DNA of 61,474 nucleotides, taken from assembly GCA_964483315.1 (NCBI GenBank), contig CAZAAL010000003.1, positions 90,805 to 152,278 of the forward strand, given 5' to 3'. Shown here in pieces: positions 10,018 through 61,474 of the stretch. A program made the translations under genes and the position numbers. Numbering within the stretch: position 1 is the first letter of the stretch; the number at the start of each line of letters is the position of its first letter. The stretch comes from an uncultured Candidatus Saccharibacteria bacterium. GTDB taxonomy: Bacteria > Patescibacteriota > Saccharimonadia > Saccharimonadales > UBA10212. The notes beneath the pieces are model-generated. The model worked only from the letters and a program-made list of their open reading frames with translations, searched no databases and was not told the DNA's origin.

Positions 10018-10104
10018 GGGCGGGTGGTGAAATTGGTATACACGCTAGACTCAAAATCTTGTGAGCGTCAGCTCGTGAGGGTTCAAGTCCCTCCCCGCCC
10101 ACCA
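10018..10104 (+). tRNA. tRNA-Leu (anticodon CAA), long variable arm, CCA encoded
   Basis: Acceptor GGGCGGG/CCCGCCC, anticodon loop CTCAAAA (CAA), long variable arm, T-arm GAGGG-TTCAAGT-CCCTC, discriminator A plus CCA. Confidence 0.9.
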
Positions 10105-46525: not shown

Positions 46526-46554
46526 TTGACTTGAACACTATTTTTAACTAAAAT
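46526..46554 (+). promoter_or_regulatory. Sigma70-like promoter TTGACT-N17-TAAAAT for the first WxL-like gene
   Basis: Hexamers at 46526-46531 and 46549-46554. The upstream motif GTTGTAAAAA is shared with the paralog promoter region. Confidence 0.45.
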
Positions 46555-46682
46555 ATTACTTAAGGTAATAAAATAAAAACATATAAAAAGTTACCTAAAA
46601 TATTAAAACAATCGGTTTACTTAATTTATCGAGGTGTAAACTTATTGTGGCTCGCGTACCATCAAATAAAAAAGGAGACAAT

Positions 46683-47396
46683 ATGGTCAAATCAATATCA
46701 ACTAATGTCAGTAAGATTGCTTTTATAGTAGCCACGCTACTGCTAGCTTTTTCTCTAAGCTCAACGCATGTTCTGGCATCAAACACGCCTAACTTTACTC
46801 AAACACTAAACGCTGGTGTTTTAAGCACGGATATAATGGACGCATCAAGAGTTACTGTCGTTAGCCCTAGTGTAGCGTTTTCAGCAAAGACATTCTCATT
46901 TGATTGTCATTACGACGGAAGCCCAACCAATACTGCCTCTACGGGCACACTGGGAACTGCCTCTCAACGTGTGTATGTAATGAACCCGGATGCCGCCGAT
47001 AATGGCTGGACTCTATCAATTGCTGCAACTGGTGGCATCACTTCGGCTTGGGACGCCGGTGCTGCTACTGACTATGACTTTAACGACCCAACTAGCTCCG
47101 GCTGTACAGACGGTGCAGATGGCGACTCATTTGGAGGTCAAATGACCATTGATCCAAGTGTAAGTACCTTAACTGCAGATTGTTTGACTTGTGTAACAAC
47201 AAACGTCACTAAAGGCTCAAGTGCATCATTCAACCAAGGTACAGTAGACAGCATTACACTACTTAATGCCGCAGCTGCTTCTGATGATGTTTGGCGCGGT
47301 TACATGACAGGTGCTTCAACATCACAAACTGTTCCCGCTGAGCAACCTGCTGGTAGCTATAGTGTTGGTATGACAGTTACAGTCGTAGCTAACTAA
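46683..47396 (+). CDS. Secreted WxL-like surface protein, paralog 1
   Basis: The ATG at 46683 is preceded by AAAGGAGA. Signal peptide ending VLA-SNTPNF, a GWTLSIAAT motif, four conserved Cys, and C-terminal GSYSVGMTVTVVAN. Confidence 0.6.
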   Translation: MVKSISTNVSKIAFIVATLLLAFSLSSTHVLASNTPNFTQTLNAGVLSTDIMDASRVTVVSPSVAFSAKTFSFDCHYDGSPTNTASTGTLGTASQRVYVMNPDAADNGWTLSIAATGGITSAWDAGAATDYDFNDPTSSGCTDGADGDSFGGQMTIDPSVSTLTADCLTCVTTNVTKGSSASFNQGTVDSITLLNAAAASDDVWRGYMTGASTSQTVPAEQPAGSYSVGMTVTVVAN

Positions 47397-47417
47397 AGTA
47401 TTACGCGACCATTATTT

Positions 47418-47443
47418 AAAAAGCTCCAACCAGGAGCTTTTTA
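47418..47443 (+). terminator. Intrinsic terminator
   Basis: AAAAAGCTCC / AACCA / GGAGCTTTTT. Confidence 0.75.
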
Positions 47444-47542
47444 AATTGAATACAATTTGTGTGACAAGTCAAAATAAAAAAGCTGTGCAGACTTATATAA
47501 ACAGAGGTAAAACTAAATTACGTTGTAAAAATTATTATACCT

Positions 47543-47571
47543 TTGACAGGTACAAGATTATGCATTACCAT
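47543..47571 (+). promoter_or_regulatory. Possible promoter TTGACA-N17-TACCAT for the second WxL-like gene
   Basis: Consensus -35 but weak -10. Preceded by GTTGTAAAAA, as in the paralog. Confidence 0.35.
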
Positions 47572-47603
47572 TATTGTCATAACATCTAATATGAGGGGGA
47601 TGT

Positions 47604-48305
47604 ATGACCGAAGCAAAACGCTTTGAAAGTGTTATTAAAATGGGATTTGTATTGGCTTTAACGCTAGTACTAGCCTTTAGTGGGGGATCGCTTTATGCAG
47701 CTAATACCCCAAACTTTACACAAACTATAAACGCAGGAGTGTTAGCAACTGATATCTTAGATTCATCTAGGGTTAGTGTTGGCTCGCCGACTGTAGCTCT
47801 ATCGTCAAAGACTTTTTCTTTTGATTGTTATAGCGGCGGTACTGCGTCAACAGGCACATTGGGTACTAACACTGAGCGTGTTTATGTAATGAACCCGGAC
47901 GCTGCCGATAACGGCTGGACGCTTACAATTGCAGCAACAAGTGGTGCAACAACTGCTTGGGATGCAGGCGCTGCTACTGACTATGATTTTAACGATCCAG
48001 GTGGTTCAGGCTGTACTGATGGCGGTGATGCCGATAGCTTTGGTGGACAGCTGACAATTGATGCTAATGCAGGTACGCTTACGGCTGATTGTTTAAGCTG
48101 TACGACTACTAACGTCACCAAAGGTTCCAGTACTGCTTTTAACCAAGGCACGACCGATAGTGTAACTTTACTTTCAGCAGCTTCTGGTTCAGATGATATC
48201 TGGAGAGGTTACTTAACTAATGCTGGAGTTTCGCAAACTATACCTGCGGAACAAGTATCAGGTAGTTATTCGCTTGGTATGACCTTAACGGTCACAGCAC
48301 TGTAA
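47604..48305 (+). CDS. Secreted WxL-like surface protein, paralog 2
   Basis: Collinear with paralog 1 and highly similar by eye. Signal peptide ending LYA-ANTPNF, a GWTLTIAAT motif, C-terminal GSYSLGMTLTVTAL. SD GAGGGGG. Confidence 0.6.
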   Translation: MTEAKRFESVIKMGFVLALTLVLAFSGGSLYAANTPNFTQTINAGVLATDILDSSRVSVGSPTVALSSKTFSFDCYSGGTASTGTLGTNTERVYVMNPDAADNGWTLTIAATSGATTAWDAGAATDYDFNDPGGSGCTDGGDADSFGGQLTIDANAGTLTADCLSCTTTNVTKGSSTAFNQGTTDSVTLLSAASGSDDIWRGYLTNAGVSQTIPAEQVSGSYSLGMTLTVTAL

Positions 48306-48377
48306 GACTCTATCAAATAAAAACCCTAAACACTCGGCTGATTAATCGGCTGGTCTAACCCCTCATTGCAAAATAAT

Positions 48378-49589
48378 ATGCACATAAACTTTAAAAAAAT
48401 CAGTCGCTTTAGCTCGGTGGTAGCCTTACTGCTGTTAGTTTTGCTTTCGCCACAGCTAGTTAGCGCTATTGAATACCGTGGTATTGGCGGACAACCCGCA
48501 AACCCAAGGTCAGATAACCCACGCTCAAATTCAATATTTATCTACGCACTCAAGCCTGGCGAATCAGTTAAGGATGCGGTTATAGTTAGGAATGGTACTG
48601 AACAGACCAACACAATATTGGTTTACCCTACTGATTCACTGGTTTCAAGTGGTGGAGCTTTTGCTTGTGAACAAAAAGTTGAAGATGCGAACAATGTTGG
48701 TTCCTGGATCAAGATGGATCGAACCGAAGTTGAATTACCGCCACAAGGCTCTGAAACAGTTGGGTTTACGCTTACCGTTCCAAAAGATGCCGATGTTGGT
48801 GAGCATAATGGCTGTATTGCTATTCAGTCCGGGACTGCTCTGCCAGAAAAAGATGTAAATGGTTTAACACTTAGCTTTCGTTCGGCAATCAGGGTTGCCG
48901 TTACAGTGCCTGGCAAAATTAACAAGTCTTTAAATATAACCAAGCTTGAACTACAAAAAGCATCGTCTGCCGATAAACAAGGTGTGAAGACGGAGTTTAG
49001 AAACCGCGGGAACGTTTCACTTGACACCGATGTTACTGTGCAAATGACCGGTCCTTTTGGTAGGCAGATCGAAAAGATTGATGGTACATATGTAATGCTA
49101 TCTGGTGTTTCAACAGAGCTTAACTTCGAGCTAAAACGACCTAAGATTCCTTGGTTTTATACGGTTAGCGTAATTGGTAAGTATAATGACGATCCATCCA
49201 AGCCCCTTGGACAGACTGCTGACAAAAACAACGTAGTTGTAAAATCAAAAACTGTAATAATTTGGCCAAGCCTAAAGCAGCTGGCTATCATTATGCTGAT
49301 ATTAGCGGTAGTCATAGCTATCTTCATGAAATTCTTTTACAAGAAGTACTTACTGAAAAAACGTCAAAAAAGCGCACGTCGATATATCGTTAAAAAAGGT
49401 GACACGCTTGAAGGTATTGCCGACAAGCTTGGTGTAAGCTGGTACGATGTAGCGCTGCTTAATAATCTAAAAGCTCCATATAAGTTAAGTAGTGGCAAAA
49501 AGTTACTGTATGTACCCACTAAAGCTAAGCCTAGAACAAAAAAAGGCAAAAAGGTCAGTAAAAAGCAAATCTTAAAGCGCAAGAAGTAA
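48378..49589 (+). CDS. DUF916/DUF3324-like cell-surface protein with a C-terminal TM anchor followed by a LysM domain and a poly-basic tail
   Basis: The ATG at 48378 is preferred over the TTG at 48366. Signal peptide. NSIFIYALKPGESVKDAVIVRNGTEQTNTILVYPTDS resembles the DUF916 core. TM LAIIMLILAVVIAIFMKFF. LysM YIVKKGDTLEGIADKLGVSWYDVALLNNLKAPYKLSSGKKLLYVP. Confidence 0.6.
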   Translation: MHINFKKISRFSSVVALLLLVLLSPQLVSAIEYRGIGGQPANPRSDNPRSNSIFIYALKPGESVKDAVIVRNGTEQTNTILVYPTDSLVSSGGAFACEQKVEDANNVGSWIKMDRTEVELPPQGSETVGFTLTVPKDADVGEHNGCIAIQSGTALPEKDVNGLTLSFRSAIRVAVTVPGKINKSLNITKLELQKASSADKQGVKTEFRNRGNVSLDTDVTVQMTGPFGRQIEKIDGTYVMLSGVSTELNFELKRPKIPWFYTVSVIGKYNDDPSKPLGQTADKNNVVVKSKTVIIWPSLKQLAIIMLILAVVIAIFMKFFYKKYLLKKRQKSARRYIVKKGDTLEGIADKLGVSWYDVALLNNLKAPYKLSSGKKLLYVPTKAKPRTKKGKKVSKKQILKRKK

Positions 49590-49594
49590 ATTGA

Positions 49595-49623
49595 TTGACA
49601 TATCAGTTGGTTGTTAGTATACT
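49595..49623 (+). promoter_or_regulatory. Near-consensus promoter TTGACA-N17-TATACT
   Basis: Hexamers at 49595-49600 and 49618-49623, about 57 nt upstream of the ATG at 49680. Confidence 0.5.
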
Positions 49624-49679
49624 TAGCGTAAGTACTTTACCGTCTCGCAACAGGCGTACAAAACAAAAACTATTTAAAT

Positions 49680-50156
49680 ATGTTGCGACGACTACTAAAA
49701 ATCCTGCCCTTTCTAGTTTTTAGCGTTTTTTTTGTAGCTAAAGCTTCAGCTAGCTCGAATCCGACATTTAAGTTAAGAATATTACCAAAAGACTGCATTT
49801 TTACGGTTTTGGACGTCGGCACACAAACTTTATTTTTTATAACTCCAAAAATATGTGAGCCACCGCCACCAGTTAATACCTCTACAAACCTTGAGCTTCC
49901 ACTTGAGCAGCTTGTAACTTATGAAGACGCTACTGGTAAAACTACTTTTATACCACCAGCCAACAATAATCCTAAGGTTGATAATATAAGCATTGACTCA
50001 TATAAAATTATTGGCAGCATTACTAATACATTGTTTTATGCTATTGGCTGGACGTTAATTGGGCTGCTTTGGGCGCTCTTAATATTTACCATTGCTTTTG
50101 GGCTAGCAGGCTTTAGAAAATTCATCGCTACACTTGGCTCTGTCATTCATCGTTAG
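49680..50156 (+). CDS. Small hypothetical protein with a signal peptide and a C-terminal TM anchor
   Basis: 158 aa. Signal LPFLVFSVFFVAKASA and C-terminal TM LFYAIGWTLIGLLWALLIFTIAFGLAGF. Confidence 0.5.
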   Translation: MLRRLLKILPFLVFSVFFVAKASASSNPTFKLRILPKDCIFTVLDVGTQTLFFITPKICEPPPPVNTSTNLELPLEQLVTYEDATGKTTFIPPANNNPKVDNISIDSYKIIGSITNTLFYAIGWTLIGLLWALLIFTIAFGLAGFRKFIATLGSVIHR

Positions 50157-50179: not shown

Positions 50180-52156
50180 ATGGGAAATAAAAAATTCTTT
50201 AGGCAATTTTTTGTTACGTTTATAATTACCACGCTTGCCCTGGTAATTTTAAGCAGACTGATGTCTGGGTTTGATTTAAATAACGATCTACCAGCGGCAA
50301 TTAGTATGTCAGCTATACTTAGTTTGATAAATGTTGTACTTTGGCCTTTGATTATTAGGCTTGCCCTACCCTTTACTGTTTTGACTTTTGGGTTGGGTGT
50401 ACTGATTCTAAATGGTATGGCAGTTAGTTTGGCTGCTAGCTTAGGGTCTACCGAGGTATATATTGAGTCGTTTTGGGACTCAATCATTGTTGCTTTAGGC
50501 GTTACCGTACTAAATACACTAGTCATGTCTATTTTTTCAGTAGAAGACGATGACTTTTATTATTTGAATATAGTCAAAAAAAATTTAAATAAAAAGTCGC
50601 AATCTACACATGACCCAAATCAAACTGGACGCTTTTTTCTAGAGATTGATGGGCTTGCACACGATGTATTATTAAGAGCACTAAGGGATGGAAACGCACC
50701 TACTATGTCTCGCTGGTTACGCGAGGGTAGCCATAAACTGATTGGGTGGGAAACCGATTGGTCATCACAAACTGGTGCGATGCAGGCTGGGATCTTACAC
50801 GGCAACAATAAGAATATGCCAGCATTTAGATGGTGGGAAAAAGCCGAAAATCGAGCAATGGTTTCTAATCACCCTAAAGACGCCATGGAAATTGAGTCTA
50901 GGCATTCAAATGGGAGAGGCCTGCTAGCAAACAACGGTGCTTCGAGAGCCAACTTGCTATCAGGTGATGCACCGTACAGTATGCTGACAATGAGCACCGT
51001 ACTCAAAAAAAATAGAGGCGGTCGAATAGGCCGTGATTACTATACTTTTTTTGTTAATCCTTACAATCTTCTAAGGACAATAGTCCTAACAATCCAAGAA
51101 GTTGTGATTGAGTTGTGGCAGGCTAATCAACAAAAACGACTTGATGTGTATCCAAGAGTGCACAGGGGCTTTAGCTATTCACTGTTAAGAGCCTGGACAA
51201 CAGTTATACAGAGGGATTTGCAGGTCCAGGCAATTATTGGTGATATGTTGGCTGGCCGTCCAATTGCTTACACAACATTTTTGGGTTACGACGAGGTTGC
51301 GCATCATTCTGGGATTGAGCGACTCGATGCACTGGCAGTGTTGCGACGCATAGACAGACAATTTAAAAGGATCGAATCAGTAATTAAGATTGCACCAATT
51401 AAATACGAATTGATTATTTTGTCTGATCATGGTCAGACGCAAGGTGCTACATTCTTGCAACGATATGGGTTAAGCCTTGAGCAATTAGTTACCAATCTAA
51501 CTAATGCACAGGTTGCAGTAGTTGATCATGGCGACGAAAGCGCATCGTCGCTAAAAACATCGATTACCGAGGTCGGTAGCGGTAAGGGAGGTTTTGCCAA
51601 GATAGTCAGAGGCCTCCATAGGGAGCATAAACCATCGGATCAAACCTCGGCAGAAAACTCGAATATAGTAGTTATGGCATCCGGCTGCTTAGGCCTGATT
51701 TACTTTAAAGACATAAAATCAAGGGCGACTGCACAGCAAATCGAGAATAAGTACCCTAATCTGATTCAGTCGCTAGTTGCTCATCCCGGGGTTGGATTTT
51801 TGCTAGTAAAGGATAAAGACAATGGATCGGTTGTTCTTGGAAGAGATGGTAAAAACTTTTTGGACCAAAATAGAATTGAAGGCAAAGATCCACTTGAACA
51901 CTATGGCGAAAACGCCAGTCAACACGTATTAAGAACAAGCTCGTTTACAAATTGTGCCGACATTATGATCAACAGTACTTATTGGCCAATGACTGGCGAA
52001 GTAGCAGCCTTTGAAGAGCTTGTTGGGTCGCATGGCGGACTTGGTGGTACACAGAACCATCCATTTGTACTTTTCCCTGCAGCTTGGACTGAGCCAACTA
52101 AAGATATTGTAGGTGCTGAAACTTTACACCACCAGCTACTTAAGTGGCTTAAGTAG
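50180..52156 (+). CDS. Fusion of a DUF360/phage-holin-4-like 4-TM module to an alkaline-phosphatase-superfamily (type I phosphodiesterase-like) domain
   Basis: The N-terminal ~125 aa has the DUF360-like pattern (LINVVLWPLIIRLALPFTVLTFGLGVLILNG). The C-terminal part has FLEIDGLAHD and ILSDHGQTQG metal-site-like motifs. Confidence 0.7.
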   Translation: MGNKKFFRQFFVTFIITTLALVILSRLMSGFDLNNDLPAAISMSAILSLINVVLWPLIIRLALPFTVLTFGLGVLILNGMAVSLAASLGSTEVYIESFWDSIIVALGVTVLNTLVMSIFSVEDDDFYYLNIVKKNLNKKSQSTHDPNQTGRFFLEIDGLAHDVLLRALRDGNAPTMSRWLREGSHKLIGWETDWSSQTGAMQAGILHGNNKNMPAFRWWEKAENRAMVSNHPKDAMEIESRHSNGRGLLANNGASRANLLSGDAPYSMLTMSTVLKKNRGGRIGRDYYTFFVNPYNLLRTIVLTIQEVVIELWQANQQKRLDVYPRVHRGFSYSLLRAWTTVIQRDLQVQAIIGDMLAGRPIAYTTFLGYDEVAHHSGIERLDALAVLRRIDRQFKRIESVIKIAPIKYELIILSDHGQTQGATFLQRYGLSLEQLVTNLTNAQVAVVDHGDESASSLKTSITEVGSGKGGFAKIVRGLHREHKPSDQTSAENSNIVVMASGCLGLIYFKDIKSRATAQQIENKYPNLIQSLVAHPGVGFLLVKDKDNGSVVLGRDGKNFLDQNRIEGKDPLEHYGENASQHVLRTSSFTNCADIMINSTYWPMTGEVAAFEELVGSHGGLGGTQNHPFVLFPAAWTEPTKDIVGAETLHHQLLKWLK

Positions 52157-61420: not shown

Positions 61421-61474
61421 GCTAGGGAGGAGGGATTCGAACCCCCGAATGCCAGGACCAAAACCTGGTGCCTT
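61419..61474 (-). tRNA. tRNA-Gln (anticodon UUG), 5' part beyond the window edge
   Basis: The reverse complement reads AAGGCACCAGGTTTTGGTCCTGGCATTCGGGGGTTCGAATCCCTCCTCCCTAGCCA. Anticodon loop TTTTGGT (TTG), T-arm GGGGG-TTCGAAT-CCCTC, CCA encoded. Confidence 0.85.

Follow-up and report, generated by a model that had tools for sequence, protein, structure and literature searches.

A co-conserved gene module of Saccharibacteria and other Patescibacteria that resembles WxL/Csc cell-surface clusters and carries a divergent anchor domain

Introduction

Patescibacteria, the Candidate Phyla Radiation (CPR), account for a large share of bacterial diversity, and those in culture live attached to bacterial hosts. 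Beyond type IV pili and a handful of adhesins, the surface machinery of these organisms is largely unannotated. A locus at positions 46526-50156 of a stretch of 61,474 nucleotides from an uncultured Candidatus Saccharibacteria bacterium (contig CAZAAL010000003.1; the whole stretch is referred to as the window) raises the question whether CPR epibionts possess a counterpart of the WxL/Csc clusters of Lactobacillales and Bacillales. In these, CscA is a WxL-interacting protein (WxLIP) composed of DUF916, DUF3324 and a transmembrane helix, CscB is a small and CscC a large WxL protein, and CscD is an LPXTG protein, which is frequent but not obligatory. WxL domains are characterized by two Trp-x-Leu motifs on neighboring strands and by non-covalent attachment to peptidoglycan, and the small WxL proteins contain nothing but this domain. 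The Firmicute layout is small WxL, WxLIP, large WxL and small anchored protein (PMC9772566, PMC10599100), the WxL domain invariably occupies the C-terminus (PMC9772566), and AlphaFold2 (AF2) predicts that a β-strand of the WxLIP completes the WxL sandwich in Firmicute WxLIP-WxL pairs (PMC10599100). A first-pass annotation of the window, made from the sequence alone, had proposed that the locus follows the same gene grammar. The observations of that annotation are confirmed here and its interpretation is partly supported: the four genes form a real, co-conserved WxL/Csc-type module whose divergent anchor domain falls outside the Pfam family, and in our judgement the locus is probably a version of the WxL/Csc cell-surface cluster that is specific to Patescibacteria and has diverged strongly.

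Results

Sequence comparison of P3 with WxL-interacting proteins

The locus comprises four open reading frames (ORFs), P1 to P4, all on the plus strand, and their coordinates agree with those of the first-pass annotation. P3 is clearly homologous to WxL-interacting proteins. The DUF916 domain (WxLIP_PGBD) recognized in its N-terminal half scores above the Pfam gathering threshold (Table 1), and four of four P3 orthologs from other Saccharibacteria genomes carry the same pair of DUF916 (27.3-37.4 bits) and LysM. When a profile of the P3 family (62 sequences) was aligned by hhalign with Firmicute WxLIPs from Weissella and Paenibacillus, the match (Prob 98.1, E 6.9e-14, 214 columns) covered both the PGBD and the HBD, placing residues 65-280 of P3 on residues 48-295 of the Weissella protein, in which the HBD occupies residues 178-310 and both Pfam domains score 85-98 bits. 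For the DUF3324 domain (WxLIP_HBD) suggested for the middle of P3, the profile comparison speaks in favor, and Pfam gives no match. The match to actinobacterial DUF916 proteins was stronger still (Prob 99.9, E 1.2e-31). A tblastn search of a plasmid collection returned Embleya, Streptomyces, Arthrobacter, Clavibacter, Nonomuraea and Deinococcus as best matches to P3, with E values down to 8e-18 (actinobacterial) and marginal Firmicute matches. Judged from these comparisons, the nearest relatives of P3 are actinobacterial and not Firmicute. A sequence search of the PDB with P3 returned LysM chains only.

P3 had been described as ending in a transmembrane anchor, which proved incorrect: the predicted helix is followed by a very basic, 77-residue tail with a LysM domain. 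LysM and the polybasic stretch (26 K/R against 4 D/E) are found at window positions 49383-49589, residues 340-407. According to the positive-inside rule, a strongly basic tail behind a transmembrane helix lies on the cytoplasmic side. Because of this charge bias, the LysM tail is predicted to be cytoplasmic. Such a tail is kept in 57 of 65 P3 homologs but not in the DUF916 proteins of actinobacteria, Firmicutes and Southlakia. In NCBIfam, the LysM is matched best by the corresponding regions of the cell-wall-associated proteins ActS, MltD, DipM and NlpD.

P1 and P2 define a large family of secreted proteins

P1 and P2, noted before as tandem, highly similar secreted proteins, are 71% identical (E 2e-117), which is similarity beyond chance. 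The motifs quoted for them hold up in a 33-sequence alignment of the family made up of P1, P2 and 31 homologs: the mature N-terminus NTPNFTQT[IL]NAG, the motif NGWTL[ST]IAAT with an invariant tryptophan (W105) and the C-terminal PAEQ..GSYS.GMT.TV are all conserved. Four cysteine residues are invariant in alignment A1 and 57-92% conserved over 275 sequences of the domain, termed the S domain in the following. P2 has at least 999 homologs in Saccharimonadales. Scans against Pfam and NCBIfam gave no family match for P1, P2 or any of the 31 homologs, and a PDB sequence search with P2 found nothing.

In a HMMER profile search of 1.84 billion protein representatives the S family amounted to 689 clusters at 50% identity. 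Among the best 150 representatives listed, short members have 210-260 amino acids, and every long member, up to 1744 amino acids, carries the S domain at its extreme C-terminus. Mature P1 and P2 consist of the S domain alone (about 190 residues). The AF2 model of P2 is all-β with a pLDDT (predicted local distance difference test score) of 67.6, residues 26-45 at the N-terminus being least confident (pLDDT <50), and its best PDB matches in Foldseek are the chaperone-usher pilins FimA and FimG. P1 and P2 thus define a large, unannotated protein family.

Gene order and distribution

Three unrelated Saccharibacteria contigs share a common gene order: a short S gene, a P3 homolog, a gene for a long S-domain protein (LONG; 410-653 amino acids, the last ~190 residues being the S domain) and a gene for a P4-like protein of 160-178 amino acids with signal peptide and transmembrane helix. 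When each GTDB species was represented by one genome, a scan detected relatives of the module in 166 genomes, and the best 80 loci were inspected. By record title nearly all of these belong to Patescibacteria; three metagenome-assembled genomes labeled 'Gammaproteobacteria' were taken as mislabels. Gene order was counted in 66 loci with intact ORFs, using loci with sufficient room as denominators. P3 directly follows a short S gene in 62 of 62 loci. LONG (349-1914 amino acids) is present in 40 of 45 and occurs in six more elsewhere in the locus or with less room. Hence, the usual Patescibacteria module reads short S, P3, LONG, P4. The heads of the LONG proteins vary and include DUF7483, DUF7361, RCC1 propellers, LamG, H-type lectin and BclA_C, while their matches to the family profile start only after the N-terminal strand (profile positions 36-42).

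The window departs from this order. A large, CscC-like member is present nowhere in its 61 kb, the two tandem proteins are both short, and this version of the module is without any adhesin head. Two close relatives (79-82% identity) show exactly the same synteny, S-S-P3-P4 without LONG, and the lineage of the window is thus stably devoid of LONG. Co-conservation of the four genes in related genomes, on which the original proposal depended, is therefore confirmed. As regards the csc gene grammar, the module recurs across Patescibacteria, but the CscB/CscC pair is incomplete here: one small plus one large WxL-type protein is found in most other Patescibacteria loci and neither in the window nor in its close relatives.

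Eleven of 12 loci that looked fragmented became full-length when UGA was read as glycine, and the module therefore also occurs in UGA-recoded Patescibacteria. These loci (L030, L037, L039, L044, L047, L048, L055, L057, L059, L065 and L069) are fragmented under translation table 11, carry titles such as Peribacteria and Gracilibacteria, and encode, for example, LONG proteins of about 1300 amino acids with 11-25 in-frame TGA codons. In three further loci (L064, L070 and L072) two complete short S-P3 pairs stand in tandem ahead of a single LONG gene; in these cases the S-P3 unit has therefore been duplicated.

Comparison of the S domain with the WxL domain

Two sets of WxL references were used. 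The first is a plasmid-borne cluster of Paenibacillus urinalis with a DUF916 protein, a WxL protein (PF13731, 30.1 bits; gathering score 25) and a large RCC1 protein (L008:9685-12831) that ends in a WxL domain at 20.8 bits. The second consists of the small secreted neighbors of actinobacterial DUF916 genes, a family homologous to the Paenibacillus WxL family (hhalign Prob 96.9, E 2e-10). A Weissella plasmid locus was dropped as a reference, as it holds a WxLIP and no annotated WxL protein.

The S domain was matched over its full length only by the merged Paenibacillus and actinobacterial WxL profile. With 275 S domains the alignment was co-linear over 130 columns in local mode (Prob 74.8, E 2.6e-5) and reached Prob 93.4 in global mode. 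With signal peptides trimmed, the scores were 29.4 (local) and 28.0 (global), and the match had E 5.8e-4 (Prob 29). Block-shuffled controls (n=60) scored 15.2±2.7 (maximum 23.0) locally and 4.6±3.2 (maximum 15.3) globally, reversed profiles about 10 and about 8, and real Ig-domain decoys (10 comparisons) 10-20 and 0-6, respectively. The comparison of S and WxL domains thus scores higher than any of the 60 shuffles, the reversed profiles or the real decoys, and it is co-linear over 130-145 columns.

The motifs of the S domain and of the Pfam-validated Paenibacillus WxL protein are likewise co-linear (DDRGNGAGWAYSVAAT versus NPDAADNGWTLTIAAT and AGTYKSVFTYTAT versus SGSYSLGMTLTVTA). In the hhalign register NGWTLTIAAT falls on GAGWAYSVAAT and SGSYSLGMTLTVTA on AGTYKSVFTYTAT, and because of the latter pairing the second WxL position is occupied by L-T-V, in agreement with the earlier reading of an LTV in place of WxL. 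Of the two Trp-x-Leu motifs, the first is present as G-W-T-L and the second is not. Note that the Pfam-validated Paenibacillus protein is also without a literal WxL and has W-A-Y and Y-T-A at the two positions. Its AF2 model is all-β (pLDDT 85.2), with CfaB, the CfaE-chaperone, EcpA, FimG, PapA and the TasA fiber as best PDB matches; FimG (5iqm_A) and TTHA1873 (7wrk) are matched by the P2 model as well, and both motif strands are in register with strands of the two models. Taken together, the S domain is probably a remote homolog of the WxL domain that does not belong to the Pfam family. The WxL identity originally claimed for P1 and P2 survives as a modest, co-linear match between profiles, obtained with a broadened WxL profile, and not as a match to PF13731 or a bridge in HMMER searches.

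P4 and a common N-terminal motif

P4 was correctly described as a protein of 158 amino acids with a signal peptide and a C-terminal transmembrane helix (residues 126-144, by hydropathy). Between these lie a conserved, Cys-containing N-terminal segment (SNPTFKLRILPKDC...) and a Pro-rich linker. P4 contains no LPXTG motif, and Pfam and NCBIfam scans of it yielded nothing meaningful; the earlier statement that the locus has no LPXTG protein and an added LysM, located in P3, is correct. P4 resembles the syntenic genes of the two loci L002 and L003 (E 1e-7 and 9e-4), its orthologs in the close relatives have 160-161 amino acids, and it is a positional analogue of CscD. A strict regular expression for the Cys motif of P4 found only three ORFs. 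Counts from an iterated P4 hidden Markov model (HMM) were discarded because of drift onto signal peptides and transmembrane helices (31 to 191 hits).

The mature N-terminus of short S proteins, A-[AS]-N-x-x-F-x-Q-x-I, is also found at the mature N-terminus of proteins in the P4 position. With a position-specific scoring matrix, the median for P4-position proteins was -0.1 as compared to -10.4 for background ORFs bearing signal peptides (Mann-Whitney U test, p 2e-8), and 13 of 35 P4-position proteins lay above the 99th percentile. The motif does not recur in the N-termini of P3 or LONG.

This shared strand motif bears on a different view of the module, which would extend to WxL-type domains generally, namely that it builds a pilus-like fiber by donor-strand complementation, the counterpart in monoderm and CPR bacteria of chaperone-usher pili but without an usher. 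Short S proteins, each providing a donor strand at the N-terminus as well as an acceptor groove, would polymerize into a shaft, LONG, devoid of the donor strand, would serve as the tip adhesin, and P4 would form the base, contributing a donor-type strand only and a membrane anchor (a dockerin in other lineages). P3/WxLIP would act as a membrane-tethered, PapD-like strand-donating chaperone or assembly platform, and through its cytoplasm-facing LysM tail assembly might be linked to the pool of cell-wall precursors. Besides the recurrence of the motif in P4-position proteins, the onset of LONG profile matches behind the N-terminal strand and the low model confidence of this segment in P2 are consistent with this idea. 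So are the structural matches of both the P2 and the WxL model, which are best to donor-strand pilins and fibers, the AF2-predicted completion of the WxL sandwich by a WxLIP strand (PMC10599100) and the placement of the Southlakia DUF916 protein in the Ig/PapD-like group of ECOD (PMC10633639 supplement). A LONG-less cluster with two short genes, each behind a strong promoter-like site, would also make more sense if the short proteins were the structure itself. Nevertheless, we consider a fiber unlikely. The Foldseek matches are weak (E ~1e-3), P4 of the window itself matches the N-terminal motif modestly, at about the 90th percentile, the motif could instead be a processing or sorting signal, and the confident WxL monomer model places the N-terminal strand inside its own domain. 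Our literature search found no paper linking WxL proteins with donor-strand exchange. Chaperone-usher pili (FimA/FimH/FimC; CfaB/CfaE/CfaA) follow the same logic, with a shaft subunit, a tip adhesin whose pilin domain is C-terminal and a two-Ig, strand-donating chaperone; they differ by their usher, none being seen in the module or its flanks, by their outer membrane and by the lack of sequence similarity. The resemblance is therefore best regarded as an analogy of fold and logic, not as membership.

In some Patescibacteria, proteins at the P4 position combine an S-like N-terminal strand with Ig-like domains and a C-terminal dockerin type I that replaces the transmembrane helix (L049:12520-13572, L062:6736-7782, L076:10563-11645, L083:12833-13741 and L046:11764-12147). 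An essential dockerin protein, SEML1_0315, has been reported in Southlakia (PMC10633639).

Relation to known systems

Compared with WxL/Csc clusters, the module shares a WxLIP homolog (P3) that combines two Ig-like domains with a transmembrane helix, adjoining secreted proteins that consist of a lone β domain of about 190 residues, large proteins in relatives that combine variable binding heads with a C-terminal S domain, and a small anchored fourth protein. At the level of the S domain, the first G-W-x-L strand, the C-terminal G-x-Y-x-x-x-h-T-h-T strand and the neighborhood of pilin-like folds agree. In contrast to WxL/Csc clusters, the S domain lies below Pfam WxL detection, has [LMF]-T-[LV] instead of the second WxL motif and possesses four conserved cysteines; P3 is without a Pfam HBD match and has an extra LysM and a polybasic tail past the membrane helix; P4 is predicted to be held by a transmembrane helix instead of an LPXTG anchor; and the lineage of the window, a CPR epibiont, encodes two small members but lacks a large one.

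The DUF916 proteins most closely related to P3 are encoded in plasmid-borne clusters of actinobacteria (Arthrobacter, Clavibacter, Streptomyces and Embleya) and of Deinococcus, which are uncharacterized. As in the window, the actinobacterial DUF916 genes are neighbored by genes for small secreted proteins with WxL-like motifs that are homologous to Pfam WxL. Unlike in the window, the DUF916 proteins are without the LysM tail, and the small proteins are shorter (169-208 amino acids), do not have the four cysteines and match the S domain weakly and at the C-terminus only. A Deinococcus psychrotolerans plasmid (L007, 4874-10620) encodes a DUF916-like protein without a Pfam DUF916 match, flanked by secreted hypothetical proteins of 291, 175 and 1058 amino acids, and may represent an even more divergent form of the module in Deinococcota.

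Within the same phylum, Southlakia epibionticum has four adjacent genes, SEML1_0625-0628, with the same gene grammar. In the supplementary tables of the respective study (PMC10633639) they are annotated by structure: SEML1_0628 as a large RCC1/FN3 protein, SEML1_0627 (188 amino acids) as a 'WxL domain-containing protein' (TM-score 0.85), SEML1_0626 (316 amino acids, no LysM) as 'DUF916' (TM-score 0.83) with two Ig/PapD-like domains in ECOD, and SEML1_0625, a small protein, as an 'LPXTG anchor'. This cluster differs from that in the window by its large member and the absence of LysM; it is annotated by structure only and not discussed in the text of the paper. Apart from this listing, our literature search found no paper joining WxL or DUF916 with Saccharibacteria. 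The occurrence outside the Firmicute context, as claimed at first, is thus true of the literature, but it has to be qualified by the actinobacterial relatives of P3 and by the Southlakia precedent. We conclude that the module is a distant, previously undescribed WxL/Csc variant, of which a related cluster was known from the Southlakia supplementary table. RCC1-type β-propeller heads recur in the large Paenibacillus WxL protein, in three Patescibacteria LONG proteins and in SEML1_0628.

The gene context of some relatives revives another notion, according to which the complex captures or uses extracellular polysaccharides and does not attach to host cells. This is the original proposal for the csc clusters of Lactobacillus plantarum (PMC1534035). 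On plasmid pCCh of Clavibacter phaseoli (L010, 2806-11502) a pair of DUF916 and WxL-like genes lies between two GH43 genes and beside a sugar ATP-binding cassette (ABC) transporter, a context that fits the old idea of carbohydrate utilization. LONG heads with lectin-type, glycan-related folds (LamG/ConA-like, H-type lectin, β-propellers) and dockerin type I in the P4-position proteins of some lineages would also suit such a function. We nonetheless judge it very improbable, as the version in the window has no head domains, no glycosidase or sugar transporter is encoded near the module in the window, no enzymatic domain was found in the module and the flanking genes vary between loci.

Layout of the locus and neighboring genes

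The features of the locus are compiled in Table 1. For P1, the ORF begins at a GTG and would yield 249 amino acids; the likely start is the ATG at 46683, yielding 237 amino acids as in the gene-called product P0015. Signal peptides at the N-termini of all four proteins are supported by hydropathy, and like the transmembrane helices they are predictions. P1, P2 and P4 had been credited with promoter-like elements of their own. Indeed, the three best σ70-like sites of the region are intergenic and immediately upstream of these genes. In total, however, the region has 8 such sites, no more than the shuffled expectation (8.9±3.0), and for this reason their function as real promoters is suggestive only.

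Table 1. Features of the P1-P4 locus (window coordinates)
Feature	Coordinates	Strand	Basis
Promoter-like site 5' of P1, TTGACT-17-TAAAAT, 10/12	46526..46554	+	consensus match only; intergenic, correct orientation
P1, short secreted S-domain (WxL-like) protein	46647..47396	+	ORF, A1 HMM 376 bits, signal peptide
Promoter-like site 5' of P2, TTGACA-17-TACCAT, 10/12	47543..47571	+	consensus match only
P2, short secreted S-domain (WxL-like) protein, 233 aa	47604..48305	+	ORF, homologs, AF2 model, hhalign vs WxL profile
P2 first motif GWTL, residues 104-107	47913..47924	+	sequence
P2 C-terminal motif PAEQ..GSYSLGMTLTVTAL, residues 214-233	48243..48302	+	sequence
P3, WxLIP-like protein, 407 aa (likely ATG 48378)	48366..49589	+	Pfam, NCBIfam, hydropathy, hhalign
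WxLIP_PGBD (DUF916), P3 residues 45-154	48498..48827	+	PF06030, 35.4 bits (gathering score 27.3), E 1.2e-8
Second β domain at WxLIP_HBD (DUF3324) position, P3 residues ~186-300	48921..49265	+	hhalign, no PF11797 match
P3 predicted transmembrane helix, residues 306-324	49281..49337	+	Kyte-Doolittle mean 2.95 over 19 residues
P3 LysM, residues 340-380, C-terminal (predicted cytoplasmic) side of helix	49383..49505	+	PF01476, 42.5 bits; YaaH LysM
Promoter-like site 5' of P4, TTGACA-17-TATACT, 11/12	49595..49623	+	consensus match only
P4, small protein, 158 aa	49680..50156	+	ORF, hydropathy, syntenic orthologs

The genes flanking the module are unrelated and differ from locus to locus. A 658-residue ORF (50180-52156) that begins 23 bp past P4 was rejected as a module member, since its product shows no homology to LONG and one of the close relatives (L091) lacks it. 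The ORF encodes a four-helix Phage_holin_4_2 domain fused to a type I phosphodiesterase/nucleotide pyrophosphatase domain and is present in the other close relative (L092). The window also contains tRNA genes at 2914-2985, 10018-10101 and 61422-61474, the last of which runs past the window end.

Discussion

How could the four proteins work together? If the locus is a diverged WxL/Csc cluster, P3 would be the WxLIP/CscA component, exported by means of a cleaved signal peptide as a type I membrane protein that is held by its single transmembrane helix and presents two Ig-like domains (PGBD/DUF916 and HBD-like) outside the cell. The S domain of P1 and P2 would form an incomplete, pilin-like β-sandwich that is held at the surface non-covalently and completed by a β-strand of P3, just as predicted for Firmicute pairs (PMC10599100). 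P4 would be the small membrane-anchored partner in place of the LPXTG protein CscD. In relatives, LONG would dock variable binding heads (lectin, β-propeller or other) via the same S domain. Since the S domain is C-terminal on LONG proteins with binding heads in most relatives, the module may in general serve to mount binding heads of variable kind, or a coat made of short subunits, on the surface. That P3 is a WxLIP homolog, that genes and gene order are conserved and that the S domain is strictly C-terminal are observations; kinship of S and WxL domains is inferred from modest statistics together with gene context, and physical contact between P3 and the S domain, a position at the surface and any part in binding hosts or glycans would follow from this model.

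Several findings weigh against this interpretation. None of the 33 family members matches PF13731 at E≤1, the NCBIfam scan of P1 and P2 gave nothing, and the HMMER search of 1.84 billion representatives returned the S family only, with no bridge to Firmicute WxL. When alignment A1 was compared with the Paenibacillus-only WxL profile, the first motif alone aligned (Prob 13-17%), and with the actinobacterial-only family it was the C-terminal motif alone (Prob 0.9%). Upon trimming of signal peptides the local probability against the merged profile falls to 29%. Trp-x-Leu is absent from the second WxL position, where L-T-V or [LMF]-T-[LV] is found, and the four conserved cysteines have no counterpart in the WxL sequences compared. 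All Foldseek matches are weak (E ~2e-3, TM-score 0.4-0.5), and the P2 model is of moderate quality. PF11797 (WxLIP_HBD/DUF3324) is recognized neither in P3 (E≤1) nor in three orthologs (E≤0.1), and a LysM domain that should be cytoplasmic is unexplained by the model. In the absence of LONG, the window would encode a display platform without anything to display, unless LONG resides elsewhere in the genome. Finally, in transposon sequencing (Tn-seq) of Southlakia co-cultures SEML1_0626-0628 were scored NE (non-essential), and SEML1_0625 was scored NE/GA/GA, its disruption giving a growth advantage (PMC10633639). These scores, like the lack of adhesin heads in the window, give little backing to the host- or glycan-binding function proposed in the first-pass annotation.

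Those of these points that concern the S domain could be taken to mean that it is no WxL homolog at all. It would then be a secreted β-sandwich specific to Patescibacteria, for example a cell-envelope or S-layer-like protein, that was recruited beside a DUF916-type protein and acquired its motifs convergently. Such a view accommodates the missing Pfam, NCBIfam and HMMER links, the hhalign probability of only 29-75%, the cysteines and the lack of the second motif, and a strong promoter-like site in front of each short gene would suit abundant structural proteins. We regard it as improbable. The match to WxL is co-linear over 130-145 columns and lies above every shuffled, reversed and real-decoy comparison, and both motif strands are in register with strands of two AF2 models. 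Furthermore, the S family shares with WxL the dichotomy of small and large members, the strict C-terminal position and the obligatory WxLIP neighbor, and the neighbors of actinobacterial DUF916 genes provide a bridge to Pfam WxL. The assignment to a diverged WxL/Csc cluster is therefore retained.

What does this module mean for the biology of Patescibacteria? It is widespread, with 166 species-level genomes and 689 clusters, and its most abundant component is invisible to Pfam and NCBIfam. Given its conservation in many CPR genomes, the module is a candidate means by which CPR epibionts construct their outer surface. The highly variable lectin and propeller heads display the pattern expected of proteins for host or ligand recognition. 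Through the link to WxL/Csc the S-family proteins gain a working annotation, and the range of the WxL system extends far past Firmicutes. A pilin-like fold, a common N-terminal strand motif and a two-Ig membrane partner lead to a strand-complementation hypothesis that is testable in all WxL systems.

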